DNA of 64,000 nucleotides from Promethearchaeota archaeon (GTDB lineage: Archaea; Asgardarchaeota; Lokiarchaeia; Sigyniarchaeales; SOKP01). The notes under the pieces are model-generated. The model was not told where the DNA came from. It searched no databases and saw only the letters and a list, made by a program, of their open reading frames with translations. This document shows, in pieces, positions 10,353 through 34,289 of the stretch; position 1 is the first letter of the stretch, and every line of letters starts with the position of its first letter. The position numbers and the translations under genes were made by a program. The stretch covers positions 1,721-65,720 of the forward strand of contig JBHLLU010000004.1 in the NCBI GenBank assembly GCA_048938895.1. Direction: 5' to 3'.

Positions 10353-10364
10353 TTTTTTTTTTTT
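10353..10364 (+). terminator. Oligo-T tract (T12) after the transglutaminase-like gene, abutting the convergent GTPase gene stop
   Basis: T12 on the plus strand 18 nt after the stop at 10335. It overlaps the TAA (minus strand) of 10363..11829. Confidence 0.4.
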
Positions 10365-11829
10365 AAATATAAGTGTGTATTAGTTCTATTAGATTTTTAG
10401 AAAAATCAGGAAGAAACTTTTCAATCTTTTGAATTTGAAGAGATTTTTCTATAAATAGAAGGAGATATAAATTATATTTTTCTACCTGAATTTTCTTAAA
10501 GACAATCTTTTTTGATTCATCAGCAATTCCAGAAGATACTAGAAAATCCTTTTTTAAAATTTTGAATTCTTTAAAAGTGCGATATAATTCTTGGAAATGT
10601 GGTGCTGAGATTTCGAAAAATTTCTTAGATACTTCGTCCTTTGAATAATTTGATAAAATAATTCCATTCTCATTTAATAGCAAAATTGCATCCGAATTGG
10701 TTTTCTTAGCAAATTTCTTTAATTGCGTCCTGAATAATTCTCGATTAGGACTTAGTTGTGATAGCCCAAAAGAGTAGGCTGTTACAAGACTCCAATGATC
10801 AAAAATACTAGTCTGAAAGATTTTAATTAAAAATCTGTCAGAGTTCTTCTCAATTTCATCTGCTATTGTTTCTAAGCTCTGAAAAATTTCTTTTGAGCCC
10901 TTCAAGTCAGGATCAAATTTATTTAGGCATACAACAATTGGGGGGTACTCTTCTAAATCAATTAAGGAATTAACAATTCTTCTAAAGAGTCCTAAAGCTT
11001 CCTCTATCCTTTCAACATCTTGTATGTCAATAAAGAAAAATATTAGATCTACATTATATAAGTACAATTTGCTTTGTTCAAGGAATCTATCTCGGTATTG
11101 TTTTTGACCTGCAAGATCCCAAAGAGAGATCACTGAATTTTGTTCTTCAAATAAGTTTTCCTCAGTTCGCTCTACTCCTCTTGTAGGTAAAGCTTTAATG
11201 ATCTCAGAATACCTTCGTCTAATTCCTAATAAGAAACTTGATTTACCTGCCTTATCTAATCCAGTTAATAATACTTTAATTTGTCTCCTTGCTGAGAATG
11301 GATCTTTTAAATCTTTTGTAAATTCAAATAACTCACTTCTAAGATCGGACATAAACCGATTTAAATCGTTGAATTCTTTATTGCTTTGTATTTGGCTAGC
11401 AGTTTTATCAATAATGATTCTTAAATATTTCATGTTTTCATAAAAAAAGACTCTATCATCCTCACTTATTAATACGGTAATTGTGGCAGCTAATGCTTGA
11501 CCTCTTGCTTTTTCATCTGGAATAAGGAAGAAATAAGTTAATCCGTTCAATTTTAAATCAGGAAATGGTAAAATACCAAAATAGTTAACCCCTACGTCTG
11601 ATCCTTGTGAATCTTGATAAACAGAATCACCCATTAGCAAACTAATTGTTTTCATTGCGATTAAAAGTCCAGCTTTCTCATCTAAATCATTTGGCCAAAC
11701 AATCCTAGGTGTCGGACCTTTTTCATCAAAAATACTTAAAACGATTGCTTTAATGAGATTCGAATTATCAACGATATTTTTTTCTTCCTCTGCTTGTTTT
11801 ATATTTGATTTAGAGTTGTTATCAGTCAA
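10363..11829 (-). CDS. Arf/Rag-like small GTPase with N-terminal longin-like domain and C-terminal roadblock-like domain
   Basis: G1 LTGLDKAGKSSFL, switch I PTRGV, G3 LWDLAGQKQYR, G4-like LNKFD. The N-domain (IKAIVLSIFDEKGPTPRIVWP...YFGILPFPDLKLNGLTYFF) is shared with the proteins at 21761, 31992 and 33264. C-terminus: DAILLLNENGIILSNYSKDE... Confidence 0.7.
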   Translation of the reverse strand: MTDNNSKSNIKQAEEEKNIVDNSNLIKAIVLSIFDEKGPTPRIVWPNDLDEKAGLLIAMKTISLLMGDSVYQDSQGSDVGVNYFGILPFPDLKLNGLTYFFLIPDEKARGQALAATITVLISEDDRVFFYENMKYLRIIIDKTASQIQSNKEFNDLNRFMSDLRSELFEFTKDLKDPFSARRQIKVLLTGLDKAGKSSFLLGIRRRYSEIIKALPTRGVERTEENLFEEQNSVISLWDLAGQKQYRDRFLEQSKLYLYNVDLIFFFIDIQDVERIEEALGLFRRIVNSLIDLEEYPPIVVCLNKFDPDLKGSKEIFQSLETIADEIEKNSDRFLIKIFQTSIFDHWSLVTAYSFGLSQLSPNRELFRTQLKKFAKKTNSDAILLLNENGIILSNYSKDEVSKKFFEISAPHFQELYRTFKEFKILKKDFLVSSGIADESKKIVFKKIQVEKYNLYLLLFIEKSLQIQKIEKFLPDFSKNLIELIHTYI

Positions 11830-11998
11830 TTAATCCCCAAATATTTAATTGTAAAGTAATAGTTTCTAAAGTTCCTTACTATCTTCTCAAAATTATATTG
11901 TAGTAAAATCTAGATATTACTCTAATATAGTCAAAATAATAATTATTATTAAATAATTACTTTTTCTTCACAAAAGGCTTTTAATTTTAGTATATAGT

Positions 11999-13804
11999 TT
12001 AAAAAAATTTCAATCTTGTAAGTTTTGAAGGTAAAAATATCCTCTTAATAAATTCCTCAACACCAAGATTAGATCTTTGAAGTTCGTCGAATGATAAGTA
12101 CTCTGTTGCCCCATTTTTGATAAAAAATTGAAGTTTCTCCTGTTTTTTTATCCTCTCCGAAAGATCAATTTTCGCATCATTATTAAAATGATAAGAGCGA
12201 GTATAATAATATTTATCTCCTTTAAATTGAGGAATTGCGATTTTTGGAAAATGTTTCAAATCTAATTTAGCAAAACGAATTCCTGCTTTCTTAGTTATAG
12301 TTTCACTTAATAGAAATGAGATTTCATTTTCTTGAGAAAATCGTTCGCATATTGAATTCATCCTATCTAAAATTTTTATCCCAAAATTAATAGCAGAAGC
12401 ATTTTCATGTAATTCAGAATTGATCAAAAATTTGACTGCTTCATTCAATCCTATAAAACTAATAGTTAATGATTGATTATCTAAATTATAAAGGTTACTA
12501 TTGTGAATTTTACCACTACATAAAGGTAAATGGTTAGATTTTAAGTGGTTTTGAATTATATGAGATTTTTTTAATAATATCTGATATGTCATTATTAATG
12601 TTTCATTTAATAATTCTAGAAATCTTGTTTCTTCTTTAGCGATATAAGCTAGTCTTGGAAGGTTTAAACATACTTCTTGAAGAATTCCAGTGTTTATATA
12701 ATCAGTAAGATTCTCAGATTTCGATTTTTTTCCATTCAGTACGATATTATCACTATTTGTTAGTATTAGTGACTTGAGAGTATTAATTTCACTAAAAAGA
12801 TCTAGATATACTTCATTATATTCATTCAACCATGTTTCATTCAACAAAATCTCTAGTTGAGGAGATTTAAAATGGTTTTTATAATCATCTCCTTCTTTAA
12901 AAGCAGCCATTAGTGCAGTAAACAAATTTAAACATTCATTATAATATTCCCTATAGTGTGTTATAGTCGCTTCTAAATTCCCTGCAATAGTAAAATTCAT
13001 AAAATCTTCTAATATAGAAGGACCTATTTGAATTGAGCTTGATGATATGGTACGTCCGGTCATATTTATTAAATGATTTAATTCGTAAAGCATTATTTTC
13101 ATAGTTTGAACTAACTTTGGATAGGAAATTCCCTTGGCATATGGAGATAAAAACATTGCCAAATAACAATAACCTTGATTTCCGCAAAATTCATTTTGAG
13201 TAAAGGCTAACCATTTTACTAAATGATGAATAGCTTCTTTTAAATTATGAGCACGCTTTAATGTACAGCAAGAAATATTATTTTCTATTGGTGGTAAACC
13301 ATTTTCTAAAATTACTCGAGGATCCCAGATTTGCGTTAGCGGTCGTAAATCAAAATATCTTAATTTATGAATGTGAATATCTCCATATAAATGAGCTTTA
13401 GACTCGTCATTAGTCAAAATTTTTAAATGAGCATATTCTTCAGATATTCTGTTAGCAGCCCAATGATGGATTTTTTCAGGATTTATTATTCTGTCAGGGT
13501 GCTCTATCAATCCATTCTCTAGGATTTTTTCATAATCCATTAAGGGCATACCAATCCGTGTATACAACTTACGTTCATTTTCAAAATGTTGCTCAGAAAG
13601 TATTGAACAAACTATTTCTCTAATATGTGGCCCGGAAAGAAATTTAATCCCAGAACTGATAATTCTTCTTACTACAAGCTCCGTAATGTTATTTGCATCA
13701 GATTCGCTCATCCCAGTTTCTTTTATAATACTTTCTAAAATTCTTGAAGAATCGAATTCTGCTAAATCTCCTTCAGTCCTAAAAACTTTTGGAAATAAGT
13801 CCAT
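11999..13804 (-). CDS. ATP-cone plus class III (anaerobic) ribonucleotide reductase NrdD-like protein lacking the glycyl-radical C-terminus
   Basis: ATP-cone-like N-terminus (VFRTEGDLAEFDSSRILESIIKETG). NrdD-like motifs: HLYGDIHIHKL, TQNEFCGNQGY..FLSPY, IGLNEAVKF, YYYTRSYHF. The ORF ends ...LTRLKFF with no CxxC...CxxC zinc ribbon and no R-x-x-G-Y radical motif. Confidence 0.6.
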   Translation of the reverse strand: MDLFPKVFRTEGDLAEFDSSRILESIIKETGMSESDANNITELVVRRIISSGIKFLSGPHIREIVCSILSEQHFENERKLYTRIGMPLMDYEKILENGLIEHPDRIINPEKIHHWAANRISEEYAHLKILTNDESKAHLYGDIHIHKLRYFDLRPLTQIWDPRVILENGLPPIENNISCCTLKRAHNLKEAIHHLVKWLAFTQNEFCGNQGYCYLAMFLSPYAKGISYPKLVQTMKIMLYELNHLINMTGRTISSSSIQIGPSILEDFMNFTIAGNLEATITHYREYYNECLNLFTALMAAFKEGDDYKNHFKSPQLEILLNETWLNEYNEVYLDLFSEINTLKSLILTNSDNIVLNGKKSKSENLTDYINTGILQEVCLNLPRLAYIAKEETRFLELLNETLIMTYQILLKKSHIIQNHLKSNHLPLCSGKIHNSNLYNLDNQSLTISFIGLNEAVKFLINSELHENASAINFGIKILDRMNSICERFSQENEISFLLSETITKKAGIRFAKLDLKHFPKIAIPQFKGDKYYYTRSYHFNNDAKIDLSERIKKQEKLQFFIKNGATEYLSFDELQRSNLGVEEFIKRIFLPSKLTRLKFF

Positions 13805-14067
13805 AATTAGTTTAAAAGAAGGTAATTATTTACTTTTTAAAAGTACTTTTTGAATTATATTATTCTAGAGATTTAAAAAACTAAATTATTAATGGATTAA
13901 ATAGAAGAAAATTGCATGATTAAAAAGAATAGCATGGAAATAGTAAAATAATCTCATTTATTTCATTTCTAATTAATCTTTAAGATAAATAGATTCACTG
14001 AATCTTGATTTTATACTATATCTATACTCTCTAGGTCTTAATTTATAATATCTGAAATTTAAAACAT

Positions 14068-14844
14068 ATGCTAAAGCTATACACAGAATCTTCCATAAAA
14101 CGCTTCTATACAGAAATTTATAACATCTTAAAAGATTCTGATTCCAAAATCACTGAAATATGGTGTGAAATTTCAGAGATCTCTTTTCTTAATGAGTTGG
14201 GAACAAATGAATTAAATAGGTTTCTGGAAAACTTTGATTATATCTCAATTAAAAGTGGAAATTATATTTCTTATGTAGTTATAGAGAAGATAATATTTAT
14301 TATAGATTGTATAAAATATCTAAAATATGATATTTACCAATTATCTGAAATTTTAGATTATAATGGTTTTGAAGCATTAGTAAAAGAAATTTTATCAAGA
14401 AATAATTGTCATACAACATGTAATTTTAGATTTTCCGAGAGTTCAAAATTAACAGATAAATCTCAGAGCCGATATGAAATAGATGTAATTGGGATTTATA
14501 GGAAATATATCTTAATCATAGATGCAAAGCAATGGAAACATAAAGATTCATATAGCGCTATTAGTAAGGCTGCTAATCTACAACTTGAACGCGTCAAAGC
14601 ATTAAAAAGAAATCCTGAATCTTTTTTCAAACTAGTAACATCAATATTGGGGAATAATGTAGAGATAAAAAAGTATTTACCTTACGTTCTTATTCCAATA
14701 GTCGTTACACTTGAAGAAAATAGTATTAAATTTAATGAAAATCACATTCCTCTTGTATCAATTTACGAATTCAATTCTTTTTTACAAGAATTTCAAAATA
14801 ATTTACAATATTTTAAATCAATTCAGATAGATAAAATAGGATAA
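14068..14844 (+). CDS. PD-(D/E)xK nuclease-fold-like (NERD/Mrr-like) hypothetical protein
   Basis: SRYEIDVIGIYRKYILIIDAKQWK fits an E-x-D ... D-x-K nuclease-type core. The rest is unrecognised. Confidence 0.35.
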   Translation: MLKLYTESSIKRFYTEIYNILKDSDSKITEIWCEISEISFLNELGTNELNRFLENFDYISIKSGNYISYVVIEKIIFIIDCIKYLKYDIYQLSEILDYNGFEALVKEILSRNNCHTTCNFRFSESSKLTDKSQSRYEIDVIGIYRKYILIIDAKQWKHKDSYSAISKAANLQLERVKALKRNPESFFKLVTSILGNNVEIKKYLPYVLIPIVVTLEENSIKFNENHIPLVSIYEFNSFLQEFQNNLQYFKSIQIDKIG

Positions 14845-14859
14845 TTTTTAAACAAAAAA

Positions 14860-15687
14860 TTATTGTTCCAAACCCATATAATACTTTATTTGCTTCTTTA
14901 TAACATTAATAGCAATAGAGATGATTCCACTTTTAACATTAGGATGAGAAAACAATATTAAAATCATATCCTTTAAACTCGGAGATTCTGTATCAATAGG
15001 AGCTAGATCTAGTACACCTTCAGTTCCTTTAACACTAATCGATTTTAGCGTCCCTGCGCTTAATCCATGAATTATATCCGACCCTATCATTGAAAGATTC
15101 ATCCCAATAGTATTGAATAGAGCCTCTGAAATTCTACTTGAGATTGCAGAGGCAAGCATTGTTCCATCAGTTTTAATTATTGCTGAAGCTTCTATTCGAG
15201 AATCAAGTGTAATTAATTCATTCAATATTTCATTCATACTTGAAGGGGGTATTTTCTTTTCAGGTGCTTTCCTAAGAGGGGGTTCTGGAGTTTGTGAATC
15301 TAATTTTTTTACCGATATCTTTTTTGAAAGAAAACTTAAGACCTCCGTCATATCTTTTTCCAATCTTTTTTGCTTGGAAGACGTTTCTACAGATTCTGCA
15401 GATTTAGTGGGAATTGGTACTAACGATGGTTTTGAGTTTTTGTCCTCATCCTCAAGAATTGATTGTTTAAGTTCTGAAAACGCATCAGATATAGAATCCT
15501 TTTTTGAAGAAAGAATTGAACTTTGAAATGGTTTTGGTGTGATTTCTTGTAAAACCTGGCTTTCTTCTTCATTAACTTCTTCAAAATCATTTGTAATTGC
15601 AGTGAAAGAATTCTCTTCAATAGCTTTAGTACTGATTGTAGGTATTTTGTTAAGCTTTAAATCTTCTTCTTTTGGGATTTCTTGCAA
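14860..15687 (-). CDS. Roadblock/LC7 (MglB-like) domain protein with long acidic/Ser-rich N-terminal linker; probable N-terminal zinc-ribbon extension to 15879
   Basis: The C-terminal ~110 aa (LITLDSRIEASAIIKTDGTMLASAISSRISEALFNTIGMNLSMIG...GTLKSISVKGTEGVLDLAPI) show the Roadblock/LC7 pattern. The listed start is TTG. The same frame is open upstream to 15879 and encodes CQNCG...CRKCG. Confidence 0.65.
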   Translation of the reverse strand: MQEIPKEEDLKLNKIPTISTKAIEENSFTAITNDFEEVNEEESQVLQEITPKPFQSSILSSKKDSISDAFSELKQSILEDEDKNSKPSLVPIPTKSAESVETSSKQKRLEKDMTEVLSFLSKKISVKKLDSQTPEPPLRKAPEKKIPPSSMNEILNELITLDSRIEASAIIKTDGTMLASAISSRISEALFNTIGMNLSMIGSDIIHGLSAGTLKSISVKGTEGVLDLAPIDTESPSLKDMILILFSHPNVKSGIISIAINVIKKQIKYYMGLEQ

Positions 15688-15879
15688 TTCAACATGTTGG
15701 CTGATTGGTTCTACATTGGTTTCTTGTTGAATTTTTTTTTTCGTCTTTTTATCTTTTTTTGATTTAGAGGAAATAGGGAGTAGCGCACCACACTTTCTAC
15801 ACGTACGGTTTACTGCTTCGTTGTTTGTTGTCCCACAATTTTGACAAATGATAATAGTATGTATTCTCCTCCATGAATT
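15688..15879 (-). other. In-frame upstream extension of the Roadblock gene, encoding a zinc ribbon but lacking ATG/GTG/TTG
   Basis: Codons read NSWRRIHTIIICQNCGTTNNEAVNRTCRKCGALLPISSKSKKDKKTKKKIQQETNVEPISQHVE and then the TTG at 15687. An in-frame TAG lies at 15880..15882. An ATG at 15872..15874 is in another frame. A GGAGG lies just upstream of ATA/ATT/ATC codons. Confidence 0.5.
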
Positions 15880-16043
15880 CTAATTACAAAAAATTGGTAA
15901 AACTAATAAAATTAATAAAATATTAAGATTCTTTTAATTTCTGTATAAATTATAAATACAAATTTAGTGTTATTAATATTTCCAACATTAAATTAACAGT
16001 ATTTAATATTTCGTAAGTAATCTAAAAAGGGCTGTGAATTTTT

Positions 16044-17018
16044 TTATCTATATAAGATCTCTTTCAATATATTAGCAAATGTTTCAAAATCTTCTTTTTG
16101 AAAAACCGGGTCATCTTTGAGCAATAATAGATAATAAGGAGTCGAATCTTTTTTCAAGGTGATCTGTTTAAAAATGAAATTCTTTCCAAACCTTTGAAGA
16201 ATCATTCTATCTTCATATCTACTTTCTTGTACACCTGTATATTGTAGAGAATCAGAAAGAGTAAGGAAATATGGAGTTGAAGCTGAAAGTAAATGTTTAG
16301 TTTCATCATTTTTATAATAGGACCCAATAACAAGGGAGTTATCATCAATAACAACTACACCTTCAGAATCTATTTTCTTGGCAAATTCCAGTATAGTCTT
16401 CTCAATCAATTCTGATTTGGGATAGAGACTAAGCATAATTTCCGACATTGCTCGTATGATGGAACTAAAATCATAAATCGAGGTTTCATAAAAGTAAAGT
16501 TCTTTATAATCGGTAGCTTTCTTTACCTGCTCTTTTAAATCTATACTAAGATCTCGCATTTCATTTGGGGCACCTCTTCTTAAAGCAGGATCAAATTTGT
16601 GAAGGAAAATATAGATAGGTGGTTCAATTTCTAATTCTCTGAACTGATCAATAACATCTTTAAAATAACTCATTGCTTCCGGGATTCGAGGCTTATTTTG
16701 AACATCGATAACATAGATAGCAATTTCAGTACCATCAAAAAACTTACCTGGATTCTTTAAATAAGATATTCTATAACTAATTTGTCCCCCTAGATCCCAT
16801 TCTGCAATTTCTTTCCCTAGAAAATCAAAAACTCTCCTTTGGGCACCCCTAGTGGGTGAGAGCACTGCAATCTTCGAAAATTCTCTCTGAAGAGAAAGGA
16901 TAATGCTAGTCTTTCCTGCATCGTCAAGTCCCGTGAATAAAAGCTTAGATGGCTCTGGTTTCTGTTCTTGTTCTTCCTTTTTCAGATACAATATTGATTG
17001 TTTTAGATCCTTCTCCAA
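16044..17018 (-). CDS. Arf/Rag(Gtr)-like small GTPase with C-terminal roadblock-like domain
   Basis: G1 FTGLDDAGKTSII, PTRGA, G3 EWDLGGQISYR, G4-like LHKFDP. C-terminus: SEGVVVIDDNSLVIGSYYKNDE...YYLLLLKD. TTG start, with an in-frame TGA 4 codons upstream. Confidence 0.7.
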   Translation of the reverse strand: MEKDLKQSILYLKKEEQEQKPEPSKLLFTGLDDAGKTSIILSLQREFSKIAVLSPTRGAQRRVFDFLGKEIAEWDLGGQISYRISYLKNPGKFFDGTEIAIYVIDVQNKPRIPEAMSYFKDVIDQFRELEIEPPIYIFLHKFDPALRRGAPNEMRDLSIDLKEQVKKATDYKELYFYETSIYDFSSIIRAMSEIMLSLYPKSELIEKTILEFAKKIDSEGVVVIDDNSLVIGSYYKNDETKHLLSASTPYFLTLSDSLQYTGVQESRYEDRMILQRFGKNFIFKQITLKKDSTPYYLLLLKDDPVFQKEDFETFANILKEILYR

Positions 17019-17112
17019 AGTTAAATTTCACCTTTATAACTAAATGAAGAAATTAACTAATATATTCTTTTCCAAGATAAAAAATTATACCATTCTTTAT
17101 TTAGATTACGCA

Positions 17113-21760: not shown

Positions 21761-23272
21761 ATGATTATGGAAGAATTATTTAAATCTTCGATTATTAGAG
21801 GTTTAATTTTTAGTTCTTATGGTGATCTAGGGCCACAACCCATTTATGCATGGCCAAAATATTATACAGATAAGGAATTAGAAACTGTAAGAGAAAAAAG
21901 AGAAAAACAAAATCTTCTTACTCTATCAACTAGAGACGTGACACAAATTTCGATTAAAAATCTTAGTTTATTTATAAGTGATAGAGCTTTCATCCCTGAT
22001 ATAGACATTCAAAAACTTCAATATTTTGCAATCCTGCCTTATCCTGATTTTAATGTCACCTCTTTAACTTATTTTCACTATATTAGTACGAATTCTTCCA
22101 ATTCTCAGGTACCAACAGCTTTTTCAGTATTAGTTAATGAAAACAGTAGAAGCTTCTTGTATAATAATATAAATAGAATTAAACCGATTATAATCGCTTT
22201 TTTTGAATCTTTTGATAAAGAACTCGTTGATGATTTTCCGGCTCAAGAGAGAATTTCACCGTTGTTTCACAATTTATTAAAAAATTTGATTGAGATCGAA
22301 AAAAATCCCTCAACACCAATTACAACTCACCGAAAGATGAAAATTTTATTTGCCGGGCTTGATGATAGTGGAAAAACTAGTTTTTTACTTTCGGTTGATC
22401 GAAAATTTAGTAAACTTATTGGATTAAAACCTACTACAGGAGCGAGTATTAAATCAATAGAAGCTTTGGGTGCTACAATCTTTCTTTGGGATTTAGGAGG
22501 GCAGTTAGCTTTTAGGAAGAAATACATCAGTAAAGCAGAAATTTATCTATATGAAGCTGATTTACTATTTTACTTTATTGATATTAGAAATAAAGTTAGA
22601 TTTGAGGAAAGTATTGAATATCTTCTGAATTTAAAAAATATTTTACAGCAATTTAATCAAAGTACCCCAATCATCTATATCTTATCAAAAGGGGATCCAG
22701 ATATTATTAATACAGGAGATATTATCGAAAACATTGAAAAAGTCAAGCTCAAGCTAAATGAAGTTTCTTCTGATGAACCTCTTGAAATTTATGTAACAAG
22801 TATTTTCCAAGTATTTACTATCCTTAGAGCTTTCTCATCTGGAATCTCAAAATTAAGCCCTAATAGAAATTTGATTAATCATAATCTTAAAAATTTTTCT
22901 ATAAAGACTAACACATACTTAACACTATTATTAAGCGCAGATGGATTAGTTCTCGCTGATTTTTATTCACCAAAAGCAAAAAAACTTACAAAAATACCCA
23001 ATTCCGAAGAGATTGTCAATATATTTGAAGTGACCGCTCCTCAATTTACGATGTTGTTTAAGATTTTTTCCAGATTTAAAGCTTTAAAGGAAGAAGAAGC
23101 TGTTTTTAAAGTTGCAGATTCAGTTATACTATTTAGAAAAGTAAAAATAGCAGATAATGATATGTTCATCTTATTTTTGCTTGATAATGAAAAAAAAAAA
23201 GAGAAAATAAATGTAATGTTATTAGAATTTCTAGATCAAACTCAAGATCTATTATTAAGATATATAGCTTAA
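21761..23272 (+). CDS. Arf/Rag-like small GTPase with N-terminal longin-like domain and C-terminal roadblock-like domain (paralogue of 10363..11829)
   Basis: G1 FAGLDDSGKTSFL, PTTGAS, G3 LWDLGGQLAFR, G4-like LSKGDP. N-domain: IIRGLIFSSYGDLGPQPIYAWP...YFAILPYPDFNVTSLTYFH. C-terminus: TYLTLLLSADGLVLADFYSPK. An A11 run at 23190..23200 sits in the CDS. Confidence 0.7.
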   Translation: MIMEELFKSSIIRGLIFSSYGDLGPQPIYAWPKYYTDKELETVREKREKQNLLTLSTRDVTQISIKNLSLFISDRAFIPDIDIQKLQYFAILPYPDFNVTSLTYFHYISTNSSNSQVPTAFSVLVNENSRSFLYNNINRIKPIIIAFFESFDKELVDDFPAQERISPLFHNLLKNLIEIEKNPSTPITTHRKMKILFAGLDDSGKTSFLLSVDRKFSKLIGLKPTTGASIKSIEALGATIFLWDLGGQLAFRKKYISKAEIYLYEADLLFYFIDIRNKVRFEESIEYLLNLKNILQQFNQSTPIIYILSKGDPDIINTGDIIENIEKVKLKLNEVSSDEPLEIYVTSIFQVFTILRAFSSGISKLSPNRNLINHNLKNFSIKTNTYLTLLLSADGLVLADFYSPKAKKLTKIPNSEEIVNIFEVTAPQFTMLFKIFSRFKALKEEEAVFKVADSVILFRKVKIADNDMFILFLLDNEKKKEKINVMLLEFLDQTQDLLLRYIA

Positions 23273-25604: not shown

Positions 25605-26201
25605 ATGGTTTTGGATCTTAAAAAAAGAGAAAATAAAAGTAGTTTAACATACACCATTCAAAATATCGTTGTTAAAACTTCTTTAAATACCAAAGAAGGA
25701 TTAGATTTAGCGTTATTATCTGAAAAATTAGAAAACTCGAATTATGATAAAGAACGTTTTCCTGGACTTTTTACTAGGTTTAAAAACCCTAAAAGTGCAT
25801 TTATAATCTTTAAAAATGGGAATCTTATATTAACTGGTTTAAAATCTTTCTTAGATATTGAACCAATAATCATGAGACTAATTACAAGTCTAAATCAAAT
25901 AATCCCAACCAAAATTGCAAAAGAATATGTTGAAACACAGGTAGTCAACATAGTGGTAACCGCAGATTTTGGTAAAAAAATTAATTTAGACAGTGCATCT
26001 CTCAAATTAATAAATTCGATTTATGAACCAGAAGTTTTTCCAGGGTTAACCTATAATATTTCCACTCCTGTAAAATCAGTATTTTTAATATTTAGTACGG
26101 GAAAAGTAGTTTTAACAGGAATTAATCAAGAAAAATATATTGAACCTATTTTAGCCGATCTTGGAAGATTATTAAAAAAAAAGATGTTATTTAAGAATTA
26201 A
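25605..26201 (+). CDS. tbp: TATA-box binding protein
   Basis: Two direct TBP repeats: IQNIVVKTSLN...YDKERFPGLFTRFKNPKSAFIIFKNGNLILTGLKS and VVNIVVTADFG...YEPEVFPGLTYNISTPVKSVFLIFSTGKVVLTG. Confidence 0.9.
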   Translation: MVLDLKKRENKSSLTYTIQNIVVKTSLNTKEGLDLALLSEKLENSNYDKERFPGLFTRFKNPKSAFIIFKNGNLILTGLKSFLDIEPIIMRLITSLNQIIPTKIAKEYVETQVVNIVVTADFGKKINLDSASLKLINSIYEPEVFPGLTYNISTPVKSVFLIFSTGKVVLTGINQEKYIEPILADLGRLLKKKMLFKN

Positions 26202-26311
26202 TGCAATTATATTTTTGATATCGTAATCATTATTAAAAATAAAATTTTTTTTCAAAGGAATATAGTATAATTTGATAAATCAAGATAAATAACTTTTTGG
26301 GGAAGAAGAAA

Positions 26312-27064: not shown

Positions 27065-27142
27065 ATCATTTTCTTTTTATCAAATTTTTATTATCTAATA
27101 TTTCCTATATTATATTTGAATTAATAGATTAGATGTATTAAT

Positions 27143-27661
27143 ATGAAAGAAATAGAAATAAAAAATTCTAAAATCAAGCTTGTTCAAGGGGATATAACAG
27201 AGTTAGCAACAGATGCTATAGTGAATGCTGCAAATGCACAACTTATTCTAGGAGGAGGTGTAGCAGGAGCAATAAGAAGAAAAGGGGGTCCAAGAATTCA
27301 AGAGGAATGTAGTAAAATTGGTGGAACCTTTGTAGGAGGGGCTGTTATCACAACTGGAGGTAATTTAAAAGCTACACATGTAATTCACGCAGTAGGTCCC
27401 CGAATGGGAGAAGGAAATGAGGATAAAAAATTAGAAAATGCCACTTTTAATAGTTTAAAATTAATGGATGAAAAAAAGTTAAAGAGTATTGCATTTCCTG
27501 CCATCTCAACAGGTATATTTGGGTATCCGATTGAAAGATGTGCAAAAATCATGATTCATACTGCGAAAGAATATCTAAAGGGTGAAACTCAGATTCAAGA
27601 GGTTGTTTTTTGTCTTTACACTACTTCTGATTTTGATGTCTTCTTCAAAGAGTTAAAATAA
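27143..27661 (+). CDS. Macro domain protein (ADP-ribose/O-acetyl-ADP-ribose hydrolase-like)
   Basis: IKLVQGDITELATDAIVNAANAQLILGGGVAGAIRRKGG, IHAVGP, IAFPAISTGIFGYP. Confidence 0.85.
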   Translation: MKEIEIKNSKIKLVQGDITELATDAIVNAANAQLILGGGVAGAIRRKGGPRIQEECSKIGGTFVGGAVITTGGNLKATHVIHAVGPRMGEGNEDKKLENATFNSLKLMDEKKLKSIAFPAISTGIFGYPIERCAKIMIHTAKEYLKGETQIQEVVFCLYTTSDFDVFFKELK

Positions 27662-27773
27662 TTTATTTTTGATGTTACTTTTTTTATTAACGTTTAATTT
27701 ATATTTAGAAGAATCATAAATATTGAGGAGAAAAACTAACCCCCAATTTAAGACCGAGGGAGTTTTCCTTGAA

Positions 27774-30686
27774 ATGACCGATTATAGATATATAAAGTTT
27801 TTTGAAGATTTAAGAGTTAATGATGTTCCTCTTGTAGGGGGAAAAAATGCTTCTCTTGGTGAATTATTAAGCTTTGGTATTGCTGTTCCCCTAGGATTTG
27901 CAGTTACTTCCAATGCTTTTGATAATGTTTTAGATACTAACTATTATACTATTAAGGAGAAAGAGGTATCACTCCGAGAATTGATTTCCAGAGACATAAA
28001 AAAAATCTCAAATGAATTAAAATCAGAAGACATCAAGGCTGTAGAAATAGTCGATAAGATTTGCGCAAATATTCGATACGTAATCGAGCAATCAAAGATT
28101 CCAGATTCATTAGCAGATGAAATATTAGACGCATATAATAGATTAATTGAAAAAATTGGAGGAGAATCTACATTCGCAGTAAGAAGTTCAGCCACGGCGG
28201 AAGACTTACCTGATGCATCCTTTGCAGGACAGCAAGATACTCATCTTAACATATCAGGAGAAAAAGAGATCTTAGAATATATCTTAAAGGATATGGCTTC
28301 AGTTTTTACCACTCGTGCAACAATGTATCGAGAACGTGCAGGTTTCGATCATTTCTCTGTGAAATTGTCAGTCGGAGTTCAAGAAATGGCAGGAGGTTTA
28401 AATGGTGTAAAGGCTTCTGGTGTAATGTTCACTGAAGATCCTGACTCAGGAAATCCAAATGTTCTCGTCATTCGAGGAACATGGGGTTTAGGTGAATTAA
28501 TTGTACAGGGTGTAGAAAAAGGCGATGAATTCATTGTCTTTAAACATGATCCGAATGGTCTTAGAATAATTCGTCGAGAACTGGTAAAAAAAGAAAAAAT
28601 GATGATTTTTTCTGAAGGAGCTGAAAAAATCGGAACGGAAGTAGTCCCTGTACCTGAAGATCGACAATTAGAATATTGTCTAACAGAAAATCAAGTTTTA
28701 ACTTTAGCAGATTATGCTCAAAAAATTAGAGCTCATTATGGAAGAAGAATGGATATTGAATGGGCTGTTGGGAACAATGGGAAAGTCTATATAGTACAAG
28801 CTCGTCCTGAAACTGTTCACAGTATAAAAGGTGATGTCGAGGAAATCTTTTATCTCTTGGAAGATCCAGAAGAATTATCCCGAAATAATTTGTTAATTGA
28901 AAACTCAGGAATAGCTATAGGAAGACGAATCGGTTATGGAAAAGTGAAGATCATAGAATCAATTAACAATGCTCATCTTTTAAAGGAGGGAGATATCCTT
29001 ATTACTGAAGAAACTAATCCTGATTGGACTTCATACATGCAAAATTTAGGAGGTGTAATCACCGAACGCGGAGGTCCTACATGCCATGCAGCAATAGTAT
29101 CTAGAGAACTAAACATCGCTTCAATAGTAGGTGCCGATGATATAGTACAGATTATGAAAGAAAAACACCGAGAAGGTATTGAGTATGTTACTATTGATTG
29201 TAGTGAAGGAGAACCCAGAATATGGTTAAAAGATGTCGAGTATGATTTTGATACAATTGAATTTGCTAAACTTCCTGAAACTAAGACTAAAGTACTAGTA
29301 AATTTAGGAATCCCCAAAGGAGCACTTTCTTCGGGAAAATATCCAGATGGAACGGGTTTAGCAAGATTAGAATTTATAATTAATGATGAGATTCAAATCC
29401 ATCCAAATGCCTTAATAGATTTTGAAGCTTTAGTAATGAGGTATGATATCCTTCTAGATCAGAGAAATAAAATTGAAAATATTAAAAAAAGCGATTTATA
29501 TCATAAAGATCCATTTAATCGGGAAATTTTTCAACTTAAACAAACCTTAGATAAGATAAAACAACTTACAGTCGGTTATGAGAATAAAGAGAACTTTTAC
29601 GTAGAAAAATTGGCGGAAGGAATTGCGACTATTGCTGCAAGTGTATGGAAGAAATTACCTGATGGTAGTTTTGCTGAATGTGTGGTAAGACTTTCAGATT
29701 TTAAAACTAATGAATATGCAAATCTAATTGGTGGCTGGATTTATGAAGGAGAAGAAAATAATCCACTTTTAGGTTTTCGAGGTTGCTCACGATATACCCA
29801 TGATGAGTTTCAAGAAGCTTTTCTTCTGGAATTGAGAGCAATTAAAAAAGCTAGAGATTGGGGTTTAAAAAACATAATACCTATGTTACCTTTCTGTCGT
29901 AGTTCTGATGAAGCAGCTCAGATAATAGAAATCATGGAGAGTGAAGGATTAATCCGGGGAAAAGATGGACTAAAAGTTTATGTTATGGCAGAAATTCCCT
30001 CAAATATTATTTGTGCAGATTTATTCTGTAAATATATAGACGGTTTTTCGATTGGTTCAAATGATCTAACGATGCTTACTTATGGTGTAGATAGAGACGA
30101 AGCTAAATTAATCCCAATAGCAAAGAGATTTCAATACACTACAAACAGTGAAGCACTTAGGAGATCATTGAGTCATCTCATCAAAACAGCTCATGAGCAT
30201 GGAAAAAAAGTTGGTATTTGTGGTCAGGCTCCAAGTGATGACCCAGATTTCCTTCGTTTTCTAGTAAGAGAGGGGATTGATTCAATTTCCCTTAATTTTG
30301 ATACATTTGCTCGAGGACGAATAAATTGCAATAGAACGGAAATTATTGAAGCTAAGCTCAGTGAAGAAAATAAAAAGAAGTCTTATGATTTCTTAAATGA
30401 ATGTGATAATTTAATAGAAAAAATTAGAATACCACGAGGTAAGCTTAGGAATATGGTTCGAAAGCTTGCTAAAGAACAGAATCAAAAGTTATTAGATTCT
30501 ACAAAAAATTTTGATGATATCTTTGAAAATCTTCAAGAATTATCGTATGATTTTGTAAGAGAAATAGACCAAAATAAAATTGACAAATTTGATAAGTGCT
30601 ATGAGAAATATAATAATGAAATTCAAGGATTTAAGGAAAAAATTCCAGAATTGAGACGAGAAATTCGTGAATTTGGAATATATTAA
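27774..30686 (+). CDS. ppsA: Phosphoenolpyruvate synthase-like enzyme with internal insertion and C-terminal coiled-coil extension
   Basis: VGGKNASLGEL; phosphohistidine motif ERGGPTCHAAIVSRELNIASIVG; C-terminal PEP-utiliser barrel with FSIGSNDLTMLTYG. I prefer the ATG at 27774 (MTDYRYIKFFEDL) over the TTG at 27723. About 150 extra K/E-rich residues follow the barrel. Confidence 0.8.
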   Translation: MTDYRYIKFFEDLRVNDVPLVGGKNASLGELLSFGIAVPLGFAVTSNAFDNVLDTNYYTIKEKEVSLRELISRDIKKISNELKSEDIKAVEIVDKICANIRYVIEQSKIPDSLADEILDAYNRLIEKIGGESTFAVRSSATAEDLPDASFAGQQDTHLNISGEKEILEYILKDMASVFTTRATMYRERAGFDHFSVKLSVGVQEMAGGLNGVKASGVMFTEDPDSGNPNVLVIRGTWGLGELIVQGVEKGDEFIVFKHDPNGLRIIRRELVKKEKMMIFSEGAEKIGTEVVPVPEDRQLEYCLTENQVLTLADYAQKIRAHYGRRMDIEWAVGNNGKVYIVQARPETVHSIKGDVEEIFYLLEDPEELSRNNLLIENSGIAIGRRIGYGKVKIIESINNAHLLKEGDILITEETNPDWTSYMQNLGGVITERGGPTCHAAIVSRELNIASIVGADDIVQIMKEKHREGIEYVTIDCSEGEPRIWLKDVEYDFDTIEFAKLPETKTKVLVNLGIPKGALSSGKYPDGTGLARLEFIINDEIQIHPNALIDFEALVMRYDILLDQRNKIENIKKSDLYHKDPFNREIFQLKQTLDKIKQLTVGYENKENFYVEKLAEGIATIAASVWKKLPDGSFAECVVRLSDFKTNEYANLIGGWIYEGEENNPLLGFRGCSRYTHDEFQEAFLLELRAIKKARDWGLKNIIPMLPFCRSSDEAAQIIEIMESEGLIRGKDGLKVYVMAEIPSNIICADLFCKYIDGFSIGSNDLTMLTYGVDRDEAKLIPIAKRFQYTTNSEALRRSLSHLIKTAHEHGKKVGICGQAPSDDPDFLRFLVREGIDSISLNFDTFARGRINCNRTEIIEAKLSEENKKKSYDFLNECDNLIEKIRIPRGKLRNMVRKLAKEQNQKLLDSTKNFDDIFENLQELSYDFVREIDQNKIDKFDKCYEKYNNEIQGFKEKIPELRREIREFGIY

Positions 30687-30768
30687 AAATTAACTAAAAT
30701 CCAAAAAATTATATTTTAAAAAATATTTCCTAATCTACATTTCTCACTATTTTTGGTGATCCTTCTCT

Positions 30769-31044
30769 ATGACTAAGGAATTTAGTGATGATGTTAAAAA
30801 GGCTTTTGAGACAGTTGAAAATCTTCTAAATGGTCTAATAGGAGATCGAAGTGTGCCTCGAAATATCAAAAGAGTGGCTCAACGTAGTGTTGATGAATTA
30901 CATAAAGAAGATGAGACTCAAGGAGTCATATCAAGTAATATTATGTATATGGTGGATGATCTAAGTCAAGATCCAAATATCCCCTTCGCGGCACGTACAA
31001 CAATTTACCGAATCATCTCAATTTTGGAAAATATCAAAGATTAA
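30769..31044 (+). CDS. UPF0147-family small archaeal protein
   Basis: GDRSVPRNIKRVAQRSVDEL ... DPNIPFAARTTIYRIISILE matches the UPF0147 pattern as I recall it. Confidence 0.55.
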   Translation: MTKEFSDDVKKAFETVENLLNGLIGDRSVPRNIKRVAQRSVDELHKEDETQGVISSNIMYMVDDLSQDPNIPFAARTTIYRIISILENIKD

Positions 31045-31177
31045 TCCATTATTAGAGATCTAGTGGCTGTTCATTTATTCCTGATCCAATCATTTATTAA
31101 ACTGAAAGATCATATATAATGGTAAGAATGTACCTCATTCTCGGTTATCATTCATATTAGGATGGTGAATTCTACTT

Positions 31178-31888
31178 TTGGCTTTAAAATTTAATGGTTG
31201 GATTGATGGGATTACAGCCTCAGGAGTGGTATTGTTAGGGATTATCTTTGGTCTTTTTTTTATATACAGATCAAGGAAATCAGGAGCAAAGCTTCTTTCA
31301 TATCTAGGTTTAGCAAATATGCTCGCAGGTTTAATGTTCTTAGGAGTGTTTATTGATTTTTTGTTAGTTTTAATTACAGAACATAATATAGATAATAACG
31401 GAATTGTAGCTATACTTTCTTATATTTGGTTTGCCCCCGTAATAATTACATCTATGTATATAGGTGCATTGCTTCTTACCCCAAAAATTAAACTTCATAT
31501 AGTCATAATTTTTGTGATTATTTCAATAGCATTTGAAATCATAATCTTTATTGACCCTTTAACCTCATTTAATTTTATCCCTGAACCTCCTACATCCCCA
31601 GATAGATTATTAATCGACTATAATGTCAATTTACTCACATTAGCAGGAATATTGATGGGGGGATTATTATTGCCTGTTCTCATATTTCTCGGTTTTGGGT
31701 TTCTAATTAAAGGATTAAAAACTTCAGGTGTGATTCGCAAAAATTTCTTATATTTATCGGCAGGTTCTATATGTTTTTGCATATTTGGATTGCTAGAGGG
31801 GTTGACAGTTCCTGGATTTCTAGTTATAATAGTGAGGATTGGATACCTTAGTTCTTTTTGGCTTATGTATCTAGGTTTAAAAGATTAA
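31178..31888 (+). CDS. Seven-TM membrane protein (paralogue of the membrane domain of 37967..39007)
   Basis: About 7 hydrophobic segments. Blocks shared with the 37967 protein: FIYRSRKSGAKLLSYLGLANMLAGLMFLGVFIDFLLVLITEHN, IAFEIIIFIDPLTSFNF, KTSGVIRKNFLYLSAGSI, VRIGYLSSFWLMYLGLK. TTG start. Confidence 0.6.
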   Translation: MALKFNGWIDGITASGVVLLGIIFGLFFIYRSRKSGAKLLSYLGLANMLAGLMFLGVFIDFLLVLITEHNIDNNGIVAILSYIWFAPVIITSMYIGALLLTPKIKLHIVIIFVIISIAFEIIIFIDPLTSFNFIPEPPTSPDRLLIDYNVNLLTLAGILMGGLLLPVLIFLGFGFLIKGLKTSGVIRKNFLYLSAGSICFCIFGLLEGLTVPGFLVIIVRIGYLSSFWLMYLGLKD

Positions 31889-31891
31889 ATC

Positions 31892-31902
31892 TTTTTTTTT
31901 TT
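31892..31902 (+). terminator. Oligo-T tract (T11) 4 nt after the stop of 31178..31888
   Basis: T11 on the coding strand directly after the TAA. Archaeal termination commonly uses oligo-T. Confidence 0.4.
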
Positions 31903-31991
31903 ATACCGATTATTATTTATACTACAATTATTTATTATTAGTTAAATCCTCAAAAATAACTATTGTATTTGATTAATATTCGTTCAGTATT

Positions 31992-33032
31992 ATGGAGAGA
32001 CAAATAATTAAAGCTATTATATATAATAGTTTAGATGAAGAAGTAGGGCCTAATCCTAAGGCTTATTTCCCAGAAGATTTCTCTCAATTAGATTTACTTC
32101 ATATTAGTGTTAAAACCTTTGCTGTTCTTACTGGTGAGAAGGGTTTTATCCCACAATCTGTTGTTATTTTGCCATTTCCATCCCTACAACTAAAAGGATT
32201 GATTAAATATATTCAATGGGAAGATCCAGATAAACGTGGGGGGATTGGACAAGCAAATATAACTTTATTATTTCAGGAAATGGATGATGTAATTTTTTAT
32301 AAGTATGTAAAAGAGCTCTCAGCCCCTTTCGGAGATATAGCTCAAAATATATCCTTTTTAGAAAAATCAGGCGCACCTAAAGAACAATACATTACTGAAT
32401 TACACAATCTTAAAAATGCAATTTTAGAACTTCTTGAAGTATATAGACAGAAAGAACTAGAAGCATCGAAAATTGAAGCTCTAACTGGGCAAATTACAGA
32501 TCGAAGCATGATTGATTATCAATTTAAGATAATCGTAGTAGGGGATCCTACAGTGGGAAAAACAAGTTTAATTTTAAGATATACTGATAATGCCTTTAGA
32601 AGATCATATGTATCCACTTTAGGTGTTCATGTTTCGAACAAAATTTTTAAAACTGAAGATTCAACAATTATTCAACTCGTGCTTTGGGATGTAGGGGGAC
32701 AAGAAAGGTTTAAACTCATGAGACAACAGTTTTACCAAGGATCTGATGCTATATTTCTAGTTTTTGATTTAACAAATCCGGAGTCTTTTGGTAATATTCC
32801 AATCTGGTATTCTGAAATTAAAAAATATATAAAAACTCCAGAAGAAGAACTAGAAGGTTTTATTATTGGGAATAAAAAAGATTTGGAAGAGAGAAAAATT
32901 ACTAGTGAAAGTGCTCAAAAATTAGCTGAACAGTTTAATTTAAAGTATCTTGAGACATCTGCACTATCAGGAGAAAATGTTGATTATGCTTTTACTACCC
33001 TCGCTAAAAACCTCTTTGAATCGAGAGTATAA
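31992..33032 (+). CDS. Longin-like N-domain fused to Rab/Ras-like small GTPase
   Basis: G1 VVGDPTVGKTS, switch I YVSTLGV, G3 LWDVGGQERF, G4 GNKKDL, G5 ETSALSGENV. N-domain: IIKAIIYNSLDEEVGPNPKAYFP...VVILPFPSLQLKGLIKYIQWED. No C-terminal Cys. Confidence 0.75.
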   Translation: MERQIIKAIIYNSLDEEVGPNPKAYFPEDFSQLDLLHISVKTFAVLTGEKGFIPQSVVILPFPSLQLKGLIKYIQWEDPDKRGGIGQANITLLFQEMDDVIFYKYVKELSAPFGDIAQNISFLEKSGAPKEQYITELHNLKNAILELLEVYRQKELEASKIEALTGQITDRSMIDYQFKIIVVGDPTVGKTSLILRYTDNAFRRSYVSTLGVHVSNKIFKTEDSTIIQLVLWDVGGQERFKLMRQQFYQGSDAIFLVFDLTNPESFGNIPIWYSEIKKYIKTPEEELEGFIIGNKKDLEERKITSESAQKLAEQFNLKYLETSALSGENVDYAFTTLAKNLFESRV

Positions 33033-33073
33033 AATACATTTGCTAACTTAGATTTTTACAACAACAGGAGATC

Positions 33074-33082
33074 TTTTTTTTT
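33074..33082 (+). terminator. Oligo-T tract (T9) downstream of 31992..33032
   Basis: A T9 run 42 nt after the stop codon, on the coding strand. Confidence 0.35.
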
Positions 33083-33115
33083 CTAAAAATTCTTCATATC
33101 ATATCTTTAGAGAGA

Positions 33116-33137
33116 TCGTGAAAGCCTTGTTTCACGA
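33116..33137 (+). other. Intergenic hairpin (8-bp stem, 6-nt loop)
   Basis: TCGTGAAA gccttg TTTCACGA in the 231-nt spacer between the two longin-Rab genes. Confidence 0.3.
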
Positions 33138-33263
33138 ACTTTCGAGCAAAGTTAATAGACAATTAAGGGCAAATAGTTTTTAAAATTTTAATAATTATTA
33201 TTCAAAAAAGAACTCAAATTACTACTGTTAAACCATTAACTATTTGAGCCCATAAGCTGTCTT

Positions 33264-34289
33264 ATGTCTGAAGAGATAATCAAAGCAATCGTGTACACTT
33301 CGCTTGATGAGTCAATTGGTCCTAATCCTCTTCTATGGATCCCACTTGATTTATCAGAAAAGATTCGAATGGGAGTAGGTATTAAAACCATTACCATGCT
33401 CACCACGGATCAAGGCATCGTACCTAATTCTTTAGTAATTGTACCCTTTCCGGCATTAAAATTAAAAGGTATTATCAAATATATTGAAAGAGAAGACTAT
33501 TCTCGACGAGGAGGAGTTGCATTATCTTCTCTTGCACTACTTTTTGGTGAAGCCGATGATCTGATTTTTTATAAATATATGGAGTATCTTGAACCTGTTT
33601 TCTCAGAAACTTCGAAAAGAGTTGTTGAATTAGAAAATGAAAAAACAAAAAGTGATGAGATTTTTGTTGAATTAGATAAATTCCGTCAAAAACTAACAGA
33701 AATTTTAGATGATTTATACAAAAAAGAGAAGTCAAACTCAGAATTAGAAGCTTTTCCTGAAGAAGAGATTAAAGATGATTTATTAGAATCTAATTTCAAA
33801 ATTATTGTATGCGGAGATCCTGGCGTAGGGAAGACAAGTACTGTTCTACGACTTACAAACAATGCTTTTATGCGTACTTATGTTCCTACATTAGGAGTAA
33901 GTATATCAGAACGGTTTATGATGTTAGGAGATAAGCCTATTAATCTAATTCTTTGGGATATTGCAGGTCAAAGTAAATTTGAGATAATGCGTCGTCACTT
34001 CTATAAAGGTACAGATGCGGTTATTCTTATCTTTGATCTTACTAGCCGAAAATCATTTGAAAGTGTTTCTAATTGGTTTAAGGATATAAGAAGATATGAA
34101 AATAACGTAATTGGTATTATTTTTGGAAATAAAGAAGATCTACAGGATAAGCGAATTATCTCTTTAGAAGAAGCCTTGGAGAAGGCAGAAAGTCTAAATC
34201 TAGAATATGTTGAAACCTCTGCTTTAACAGGTAAAAATATTGAAGATAGTTTCTATAAAGTGGCTGAAACTTTATTCAAACCAAGATAA
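33264..34289 (+). CDS. Longin-like N-domain fused to Rab/Ras-like small GTPase (tandem paralogue)
   Basis: G1 VCGDPGVGKTS, YVPTLGV, G3 LWDIAGQSKF, G4 GNKEDL, G5 ETSALTGKNI. N-domain: IIKAIVYTSLDESIGPNPLLWIP...LVIVPFPALKLKGIIKYIERED. Confidence 0.75.
   Translation: MSEEIIKAIVYTSLDESIGPNPLLWIPLDLSEKIRMGVGIKTITMLTTDQGIVPNSLVIVPFPALKLKGIIKYIEREDYSRRGGVALSSLALLFGEADDLIFYKYMEYLEPVFSETSKRVVELENEKTKSDEIFVELDKFRQKLTEILDDLYKKEKSNSELEAFPEEEIKDDLLESNFKIIVCGDPGVGKTSTVLRLTNNAFMRTYVPTLGVSISERFMMLGDKPINLILWDIAGQSKFEIMRRHFYKGTDAVILIFDLTSRKSFESVSNWFKDIRRYENNVIGIIFGNKEDLQDKRIISLEEALEKAESLNLEYVETSALTGKNIEDSFYKVAETLFKPR

Follow-up and report, generated by a model that had tools for sequence, protein, structure and literature searches.

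The window considered here, the whole 64,000-nucleotide (nt) stretch of Promethearchaeota archaeon contig JBHLLU010000004.1, has a GC content of about 30% and encodes TBP and MtrH among its archaeal genes, and its proteins have identical or near-identical counterparts in metagenome-assembled genomes of Promethearchaeota (Lokiarchaeia). Four of its genes, termed A to D, encode small GTPases of two different classes, Rag-like and Rab-like, each preceded by a related N-terminal domain for which structure prediction supports a longin fold. The genes and their parts are given below, with positions in the window and residues in amino acids (aa); position 10363 is the 3' end of gene A, which lies on the minus strand.

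10363–11829, minus strand: gene A, 488 aa, longin–Rag-like G domain–roadblock (L-G-R) protein of the Arg-plus type, from the open reading frame (ORF) and the Pfam Gtr1_RagA match
11305–11760, minus strand: longin domain of A, aa 24–175, from AlphaFold2, Foldseek and a weak Pfam Folliculin match
11707–11718, minus strand: GPTP of A, aa 38–41
11497–11508, minus strand: ARGQ of A, aa 108–111, with R109 as the candidate arginine finger
10750–11283, minus strand: G domain of A, aa 183–360, with GLDKAGKS, DLAGQ and NKFD
10366–10749, minus strand: C-terminal roadblock domain of A, aa 361–488, from AlphaFold2 topology and Foldseek
21761–23272, plus strand: gene B, 503 aa, longin–Rag-like G domain–roadblock; approximate limits, by alignment with A, are aa 9–190 for the longin, aa 191–372 for the Rag-like G domain and aa 373–503 for the roadblock
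21830–21841, plus strand: GP motif of B, kept; the position of the arginine reads SNS
31992–33032, plus strand: gene C, 346 aa, longin–Rab-like G domain (Pfam Ras)
31992–32471, plus strand: longin of C, aa 1–160, with GPNP at nt 32046–32057 and KRGG, containing R82, at nt 32232–32243
32508–33029, plus strand: Rab-like G domain of C, aa 173–346
33264–34289, plus strand: gene D, 341 aa, longin–Rab-like G domain, tandem paralogue of C
33264–33743, plus strand: longin of D, aa 1–160, with GPNP at nt 33318–33329 and RRGG, containing R82, at nt 33504–33515
33783–34286, plus strand: Rab-like G domain of D, aa 174–341

An earlier, sequence-only reading of this DNA had proposed that four ORFs open with a homologous N-terminal domain of about 150–170 aa, and the four frames and the peptides quoted for them are indeed present. 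Pairwise BLASTP of the N-terminal 170–190 aa or so gave 32% identity between A and D (E 2e-20, 72 bits) and 41% between C and D (E 5e-47), with E-values of 2e-16 for A and B and of 5e-16 for A and C; the matches of B with C (E 3e-5) and with D (E 3e-3) are weak alone, and it is A that connects B to the set. These E-values confirm that the homology of the N-domain in the four proteins is real and well beyond chance. A profile of the N-domain, itself built from all four sequences, was run against the 153 ORFs of 60 aa or more in the window and matches A–D only, and an alignment of 26 sequences shows little or no variation at G38, P39, P88, P90 and R109-G110 (A numbering). A chance or compositional resemblance would find some ground in the AT-richness of the genome and in the weakness of the B–C and B–D pairs, but the A–D, A–C, A–B and C–D matches score 60–140 bits, and the 308 clusters of the family, the confident AlphaFold2 fold and the significant matches to a solved longin, described below, already refute it, leaving it practically no probability.

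Scans of Pfam and NCBIfam assigned no significant family to the N-domain and returned only a sub-threshold match to Folliculin (PF11704), located in A at aa 97–153 with an E-value of 0.0046 and 17.2 bits against a cutoff of 23.3. Within the family, P0145 exceeds that cutoff with 24.5 bits, and one of 104 members matches the Folliculin model at E 4e-6. The fold was approached by modelling aa 1–182 of A with AlphaFold2 from the 26-sequence alignment, which yielded a mean predicted local distance difference test (pLDDT) of 84 and a predicted template modelling score (pTM) of 0.77. The elements of the model are β1 26–35, β2 38–45, α1 51–67, β3 83–89, β4 94–104, β5 112–122, α2 123–149 and α3 153–174; this order, β-β-α-β-β-β-α-α without an N-terminal helix, is unlike that of roadblock domains and is found also in the model of full-length A. 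In B the longin carries an insert of about 20 aa after strand 2. The best Foldseek match of the A N-domain in the PDB is the longin of a Lokiarchaeota Roadblock-Longin protein, 8yqg (4e-7), and the eukaryotic matches are almost only chains of GATOR1, Lst4, FLCN–FNIP2, SEAC and C9orf72–SMCR8, the Lst4 longin 4zy8 being matched at 9e-4. Profile searches of the PDB sequences agree: 8yqg is matched at E 1.3e-5, or at 1.1e-15 with a broader profile, with which human SMCR8 comes next among the PDB sequences (E 0.039), in an alignment that falls on its GP motif. No DENN match was seen in Pfam, and what follows the longin is a small-GTPase domain and not a DENN or NPRL-specific C-terminal domain. Predicted topology, Foldseek and sequence profiles therefore support the N-domain as a longin, the nearest eukaryotic structural neighbours of which are the longin (uDENN) domains of NPRL2/3, Lst4/FNIP, FLCN and SMCR8/C9orf72. 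A longin/uDENN-type fold had been guessed earlier from a hydrophobic-LP(F/Y)P element; the fold holds, but the element does not serve as its hallmark, LPFP not being a general longin feature. The diagnostic features are instead the GP motif and the arginine.

A GP motif before strand 2 together with an arginine finger has been described (PMC12290439) as specific to longins of the GTPase-activating protein (GAP) type, namely FLCN, NPRL2, SMCR8 and C9orf72, and as absent from the longins of TRAPP, adaptin and DENND; according to the same work Asgard longins carry both features, and the partner GTPase was left open. In the window, GPxP lies in the β1-β2 hairpin of A, B, C and D, and Arg-Gly in the β4-β5 loop of A (R109), C (R82) and D (R82); the β4-β5 loop of B is without any basic residue. 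The GP motif is present in 171 of 190 family members and the arginine in 160 of the 190, and among the orthologues of A the corresponding figures are 114/120 for GP and 116/120 for ARG, the rest giving no match to the search pattern. When compared by hhalign, R109 of A falls opposite FLCN R164, the known catalytic arginine finger, in a short local match (E 0.034) in which the numbering of R164 came out right. The GP region of A aligns likewise with that of NPRL2, again in a short local match, and in the profile comparison the GP of the family aligns with G68-P69 of SMCR8. The best explanation of these sequence features is that the N-domain is of the longin subtype to which the catalytic longins of FLCN–FNIP, GATOR1 (NPRL2–NPRL3) and C9orf72–SMCR8 belong, and catalysis by the arginine is predicted from this kinship.

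The G domains that follow the longins are of two classes, as the sequence-only reading had held. Pfam assigns A and B to Gtr1_RagA/Arf and C and D to Ras, the quoted motifs are present (GLDKAGKS/GLDDSGKT, WDLAGQ/WDLGGQ, GDPTVGKTS/GDPGVGKTS, NKKDL/NKEDL and ETSAL), and the alternative of a single family is not borne out, Pfam and PDB matches placing the G domains in different families. Two paralogues in the window serve as comparators.

16044–17018, minus strand: gene E, 324 aa, Rag-like G domain (HKFD) plus roadblock, without longin, located between A and B
41967–42536, minus strand: gene F, 189 aa, stand-alone Rab-like GTPase without longin, paralogue of C and D

For A, B and E the best family is PF04670 Gtr1_RagA, with E-values of 1e-24 (87.6 bits), 3e-19 (69.9 bits) and 1e-25 (90.9 bits), respectively, against a cutoff of 22 bits; Arf also matches A and B. 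The Ras model of Pfam matches C at 2e-47 (161 bits), D at 4e-46 (157 bits) and F at 2e-43, and phmmer relates F to the G domains of C and D at 1e-30. Among PDB sequences, A matches best the Rag-like GTPases of Lokiarchaeota (8yl2, E 7e-33) and then Gtr1/RagA, at about 1e-10 over 240 residues; the best 60 for D are nearly all eukaryotic Rabs, headed by Rab1A (7e-35) and including Ypt1, Rab6 and Rab8. Both A and B contain in addition a third domain unremarked before, a C-terminal roadblock of about 125 aa. In the model of full-length A (pLDDT 72, pTM 0.64) aa 363–487 adopt the α-β-β-α-β-β-β-α arrangement of roadblock domains, and Foldseek aligns the G and C-terminal domains of A together, over about 300–330 columns, with LokiRagO 8yl2 (6e-20) and with RagA, RagC, Gtr1 and Gtr2 (1e-14 to 1e-9); Arf proteins match over the G domain only, at about 1e-6. 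Hence, by the roadblock domain and the two-domain alignment to Rag/Gtr, A and B are GTPases of Rag architecture with an added N-terminal longin. A histidine in G4, HKxD in place of NKxD, is typical of Rag/Gtr; here HKFD occurs only in the longin-less E, A having NKFD and B SKGD. Since the P-loop, the glutamine of DxxGQ and (N/S)KxD are kept in all four G domains, A–D look like active switches. The C-terminal cysteine prenylation motif of true eukaryotic Rabs was not found in C and D, which end in NLFESRV and ETLFKPR, respectively, with no Cys. According to Vargova et al. no Asgard sequences are specific sisters of eukaryotic Rabs, and so 'Rab-like/RasL' is the accurate label for C and D.

The extent of the longin family was established by an exhaustive profile search of 1.84 billion representatives (E ≤ 1e-3), which yielded 308 clusters, and the architectures of the retrieved proteins were assigned with local hidden Markov models. 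Longin–Rab-like proteins number 92 and longin–Rag-like proteins 49, with a roadblock detected in 16 of the latter; in 82 proteins, many of them fragments, the longin is the sole detected domain, and about 10 proteins of some 280 aa have a segment of about 110 aa before the longin, which is the layout of 8yqg. Tandem longins and fusions to roadblock, TrmB, TIR and other domains make up further architectures. The members named by source are all Asgard, under Promethearchaeota/Loki, Hel, Hod, Hermod, Thor, Sigyn, Odin and Heimdall labels. The public protein P0225, an 'ADP-ribosylation factor-like protein [Promethearchaeota archaeon]', has the same sequence as A, and the 120 relatives of A listed share 76–100% identity over the G and roadblock region used as query, most being of 487–488 aa. 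These full-length orthologues, the identical one included, were retrieved only with the G and roadblock query; the A N-domain alone returned only close, mostly truncated A-type proteins of up to 312 aa, and the four-sequence profile proteins of up to 335 aa. Such truncated-only returns look like an artefact of the word-index candidate step and not like biology.

How the same longin came to precede two GTPase families was considered from several sides, a shuffling of the module having been proposed at the outset. A neighbour-joining tree of 141 longin domains (200 bootstraps) sorts the longins for the most part according to the G-domain class that they precede, with the Rag-attached longins in one cluster, but deep bootstrap support to separate shuffling from co-divergence is absent, so that the direction and number of the fusions are left undecided by the tree. 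Longin-less paralogues of both GTPase families, E and F, are present in the window; the linkers between longin and G domain are class-specific in the 26-sequence alignment, DPFSxKR in the Rag type and EAFPEE in the Rab type; and the ratio of longin to G-domain divergence (dL/dG) is 0.82 between classes and 1.1–1.6 within them, a contrast that saturation may inflate and in which the fast evolution of B also weakens the argument from rates. The longin of A is 34% identical to that of C and 28% to that of B, and its G domain is 21% identical to that of C and 37% to that of B. RasL has been found to cluster with bacterial Rup1 (10.1101/2024.02.28.582541), and the RasL/RagGtr split appears to predate the longin family, the named members of which are all Asgard. 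Because of the longin-less paralogues, the class-specific linkers, the dL/dG contrast, the older RasL/RagGtr split and the many other fusion partners of the same longin, it is most likely that the longin was fused independently to the two GTPase families and was then inherited vertically; this is also the most parsimonious history, although the longin tree lacks resolution. The claim of shuffling thus stands in that one longin occurs on two GTPase families, but not as a recent event, the fusions being old and vertical within each class. A single longin–GTPase fusion that preceded the split between Rab/Ras-like and Rag/Arf-like GTPases, with later loss of the longin from most, would equally predict the grouping of longins by G-domain class in a tree whose deep nodes lack support. 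Such co-divergence is nevertheless improbable, for it needs very many losses of the longin, as seen from E and F and from PMC10933270, in which one of the 28 listed Rab-clade GTPases of strain MK-D1 is of the longin–G domain (L-G) type. It would also require an Asgard-restricted family to be as old as the RasL/RagGtr split, and it leaves aside the class-specific linkers and the lower divergence of longins, relative to G domains, between classes, with the longin of A nearer to that of C than to that of B.

Our overall reading, which we consider rather probable though with modest confidence, is that a longin of the GAP subtype fused upstream of Rag-like and Rab-like GTPases constitutes a built-in, dimerising regulator of GAP type, the role as regulator being deduced from the features above. 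All characterised longin and roadblock platforms pair. This property, and the longin–longin dimers predicted for L-G proteins of MK-D1 by Tran et al. (PMC10933270), point to pairing of the longins here too. The supplement of that paper describes the longin-GTPases of MK-D1 as without an intrinsic switch I arginine, so that they may need a GAP. Beyond the homology, fold, motif conservation, architectures, distribution and synteny observed, we infer dimerisation, GAP activity and action in cis or in trans in the following form: the longin domains would pair into homo- or heterodimers, the pair would dock on the switch face of the attached G domain, and the conserved arginine would be supplied to the nucleotide pocket either in cis or across the dimer. 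Each protein would then be a GTPase with its own GAP-type regulator, and A, with the arginine present, and B, with the arginine lost and the GP kept, would be conserved paralogues that maybe form an asymmetric pair.

A different role can be envisaged in which the longin is not catalytic and serves as a dimerisation or scaffold module, as a switch-binding sensor of the nucleotide state, like SRX of SR-alpha on SR-beta, or as a guanine nucleotide exchange factor (GEF)-type domain, like the longins of TRAPP, Mon1–Ccz1 and DENN, the conserved arginine being structural. We regard such a role as possible but distinctly less probable than a GAP-type regulator. Several points speak in its favour. Most characterised longin/roadblock platforms act as GEFs or scaffolds according to PMC10933270, as do most eukaryotic longin platforms, rather than as GAPs, and the dimers predicted in that paper for MK-D1 L-G proteins would suit a scaffold as well. 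B and its orthologues (490–512 aa) retain the GP but show no conservation at the position of the arginine, and the closest solved relative, 8yqg, has the GP and no Arg at that position; both the Arg-less B-type proteins and 8yqg are nonetheless conserved. An SRX structure, 2fh5, does appear in the Foldseek list, if far down. The GAP-type reading is further weakened by the limits of the longin tree and of the divergence ratios given above, by alignments with FLCN, NPRL2 and SMCR8 that cover short stretches and are each weak (E 0.03–0.04 and 4e-4), and by moderate TM-scores (0.35–0.55) of the Foldseek matches to eukaryotic longins. On the other side, GP and Arg are jointly conserved in about 85–90% of the family, their combination is specific to GAP longins according to PMC12290439, and the nearest eukaryotic structures are almost all longins of GAP complexes; these three observations speak against a non-catalytic longin. 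A further extension of this idea, which we put forward as speculative and rather unlikely, is that A and B would form a heterodimer through roadblock–roadblock and longin–longin contacts, with the longin of A acting as GAP and that of B as non-catalytic partner, and that the eukaryotic longin GAPs of Rag, Arf and Rab would descend from fused longins. If that were true, A:B would unite in a single archaeal module the counterparts of RagA/C and of FLCN–FNIP or NPRL2–NPRL3, and would be a Rosetta-stone fusion naming the GTPase partners of GP-motif Asgard longins.

Longin GAP complexes are known from eukaryotes, in which FLCN–FNIP is a GAP for RagC/D, NPRL2–NPRL3 of GATOR1 a GAP for RagA/B, and C9orf72–SMCR8 a GAP for Arf that is reported to act also on Rab8a/Rab11a. 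These complexes share with the Asgard domain the longin fold, the GP in the β1-β2 hairpin and, as a candidate finger in the latter, an arginine between β4 and β5 that aligns with FLCN R164; their clients, Rag and Arf/Rab, are the classes fused to the Asgard domain, and they combine a catalytic subunit with an Arg-less partner, which A and B may resemble by analogy. They differ in that here no DENN or NPRL2-specific C-terminal domain is present and the longin, rather than acting in trans, forms one polypeptide with the GTPase; sequence similarity to the Asgard domain is marginal and GAP activity of the latter is predicted. With the Rag/Gtr proteins (RagA–D, Gtr1/2) and with LokiRagO 8yl2 and LokiRagM 8zla, the proteins A, B and E share a Gtr1_RagA-type G domain and a roadblock, but A and B, unlike them, carry an N-terminal longin and have NKFD or SKGD, not HKxD, in G4. 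A and B are named Arf-like by NCBI, and older nomenclature may place them in 'ArfL'. The Roadblock-Longin protein 8yqg is the closest solved structure to the N-domain and shares its GP, and the ~280-aa proteins of the family have its layout; unlike A–D it is not fused to a GTPase, and unlike A, C and D it is without Arg-Gly. A literature search found no publications behind PDB 8yqg, 8yl2 and 8zla. MglA–MglB may be compared in principle, a prokaryotic small GTPase being regulated there by a dimeric platform of the roadblock/longin superfamily on its switch face; however, the roadblock protein MglB is a chain of its own and MglA itself contains the catalytic arginine, whereas here the platform would be a fused longin that carries the candidate arginine.

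The fusion of longins to GTPases in Asgard archaea is already described. Five longin–ArfL fusions were reported in Lokiarchaeum by Klinger et al. 2016, as cited in PMC4917890; Rag family GTPases fused to longin, and NPRL2-like longins that are abundant and promiscuously fused in Asgard, appear in Liu et al. (2021; 10.1101/2020.10.19.343400); and L-G and L-G-R architectures in the Rab clade and the Rag/Arf set of MK-D1 appear in Tran et al. 2024 (PMC10933270). In view of these three reports the finding is not new in kind and mainly re-discovers a published class. MK-D1 ('Ca. Prometheoarchaeum syntrophicum') has, like the window, an L-G protein of the Rab clade (WP_147663426.1), together with L-G-R and L-G proteins of the Rag/Arf set (WP_147663503.1, WP_147664208.1 and WP_162306576.1), a likeness of architecture within the same phylum. 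The accessible portions of the three accounts neither state the GP/Arg (FLCN/SMCR8/NPRL2) subtype of the fused longin nor describe a pair of Arg-plus and Arg-minus L-G-R paralogues with its conserved neighbourhood. Measured against these portions, what appears modestly new is that GP/Arg longins are tied to fused partner GTPases and that a conserved L-G-R pair, Arg-plus (A) and Arg-minus (B), exists. The added detail of motifs and synteny is testable and incremental, and the GP/Arg fusion with the A/B pair provides evidence of the Rosetta-stone type on the question of the partner left open in PMC12290439. Small GTPases and their longin/roadblock regulators are central to the debate on an origin of eukaryotic membrane traffic and nutrient signalling from Asgard archaea. 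If the fused domain is a GAP-type longin, the fusions would name Rag-like and Rab-like GTPases as clients of the GP-motif Asgard longins, and would provide compact systems, each made of a single polypeptide, in which the longin-GAP mechanism could be dissected.

The neighbourhood of the Rag-like genes is kept in 22 species-level Promethearchaeota genomes wherever contigs reach, in the order B, AIRS-like, SLOG, E, roadblock-tailed protein, NERD-like, NrdD, A and transglutaminase-like. A dedicated B–E–A operon was considered and rejected, since the intervening genes are housekeeping ones (NrdD, ThrC, Hom, ACT, AIRS-like, SLOG) and since the synteny of the whole region is conserved among fairly close relatives. 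Most of the intervening genes being housekeeping, the B–E–A order is mostly general synteny, and only E and the adjoining roadblock gene look operon-like. The latter, at 14860–15687 on the minus strand and directly downstream of E, encodes a 275-aa protein, the N-terminal half of which is acidic, Ser-rich and probably disordered; its C-terminal 120 aa or so resemble Roadblock/LC7 (Robl_LC7 protein, PDB 7f8m, E 0.0024), for which Pfam found no match. The gene adjoins E in every related locus reaching that far, and its product may be an operon partner of the Rag-like GTPase. On the other side of the region, the plus-strand gene at 9055–10335 adjoins A convergently, an arrangement kept in related genomes; its product is transglutaminase-like (Pfam Transglut_core, 3e-24) and has a signal/anchor segment and, at the C-terminus, a transmembrane segment.

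Of the Rab-like genes, C has a syntenic orthologue of 59% identity in the chromosome CP070831.1 and D has none there, from which D is either a more recent tandem paralogue or was lost from CP070831.1. The position of D is occupied in that chromosome by an unrelated 200-aa membrane protein, and about 3 kb downstream of the orthologue of C, at 10223–11409 of the region 2803875–2816879, lie two genes for stand-alone small GTPases of 176 and 175 aa. At 31178–31888 and at 37967–39007, both on the plus strand, the window encodes two polytopic membrane proteins that are paralogues of each other (35% identity, E 7e-29). The gene of the first lies directly upstream of C, a place taken in CP070831.1 by a 221-aa unannotated gene, matched by position only; the second protein ends in a Cys-rich, zinc-finger-like tail with weak Pfam C1/RING matches. 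A link of the two proteins to the GTPases is possible. Further along, the minus-strand gene at 39306–41891 encodes an 861-aa multidomain protein, the N-terminal 120 aa or so of which look by eye like β-β-α-β-β-β-α; as a member of the same longin family this N-terminus was rejected, no relation being detectable by hhalign (E 0.17). After it come a divergent P-loop GTPase of Arf-like type (GEKGVGKT; Arf1 match in the PDB, E 0.003), a helical region and, at the C-terminus, a carbon-nitrogen hydrolase domain (Pfam 1e-5). Gene F sits 75 bp upstream of this gene, on the same strand.

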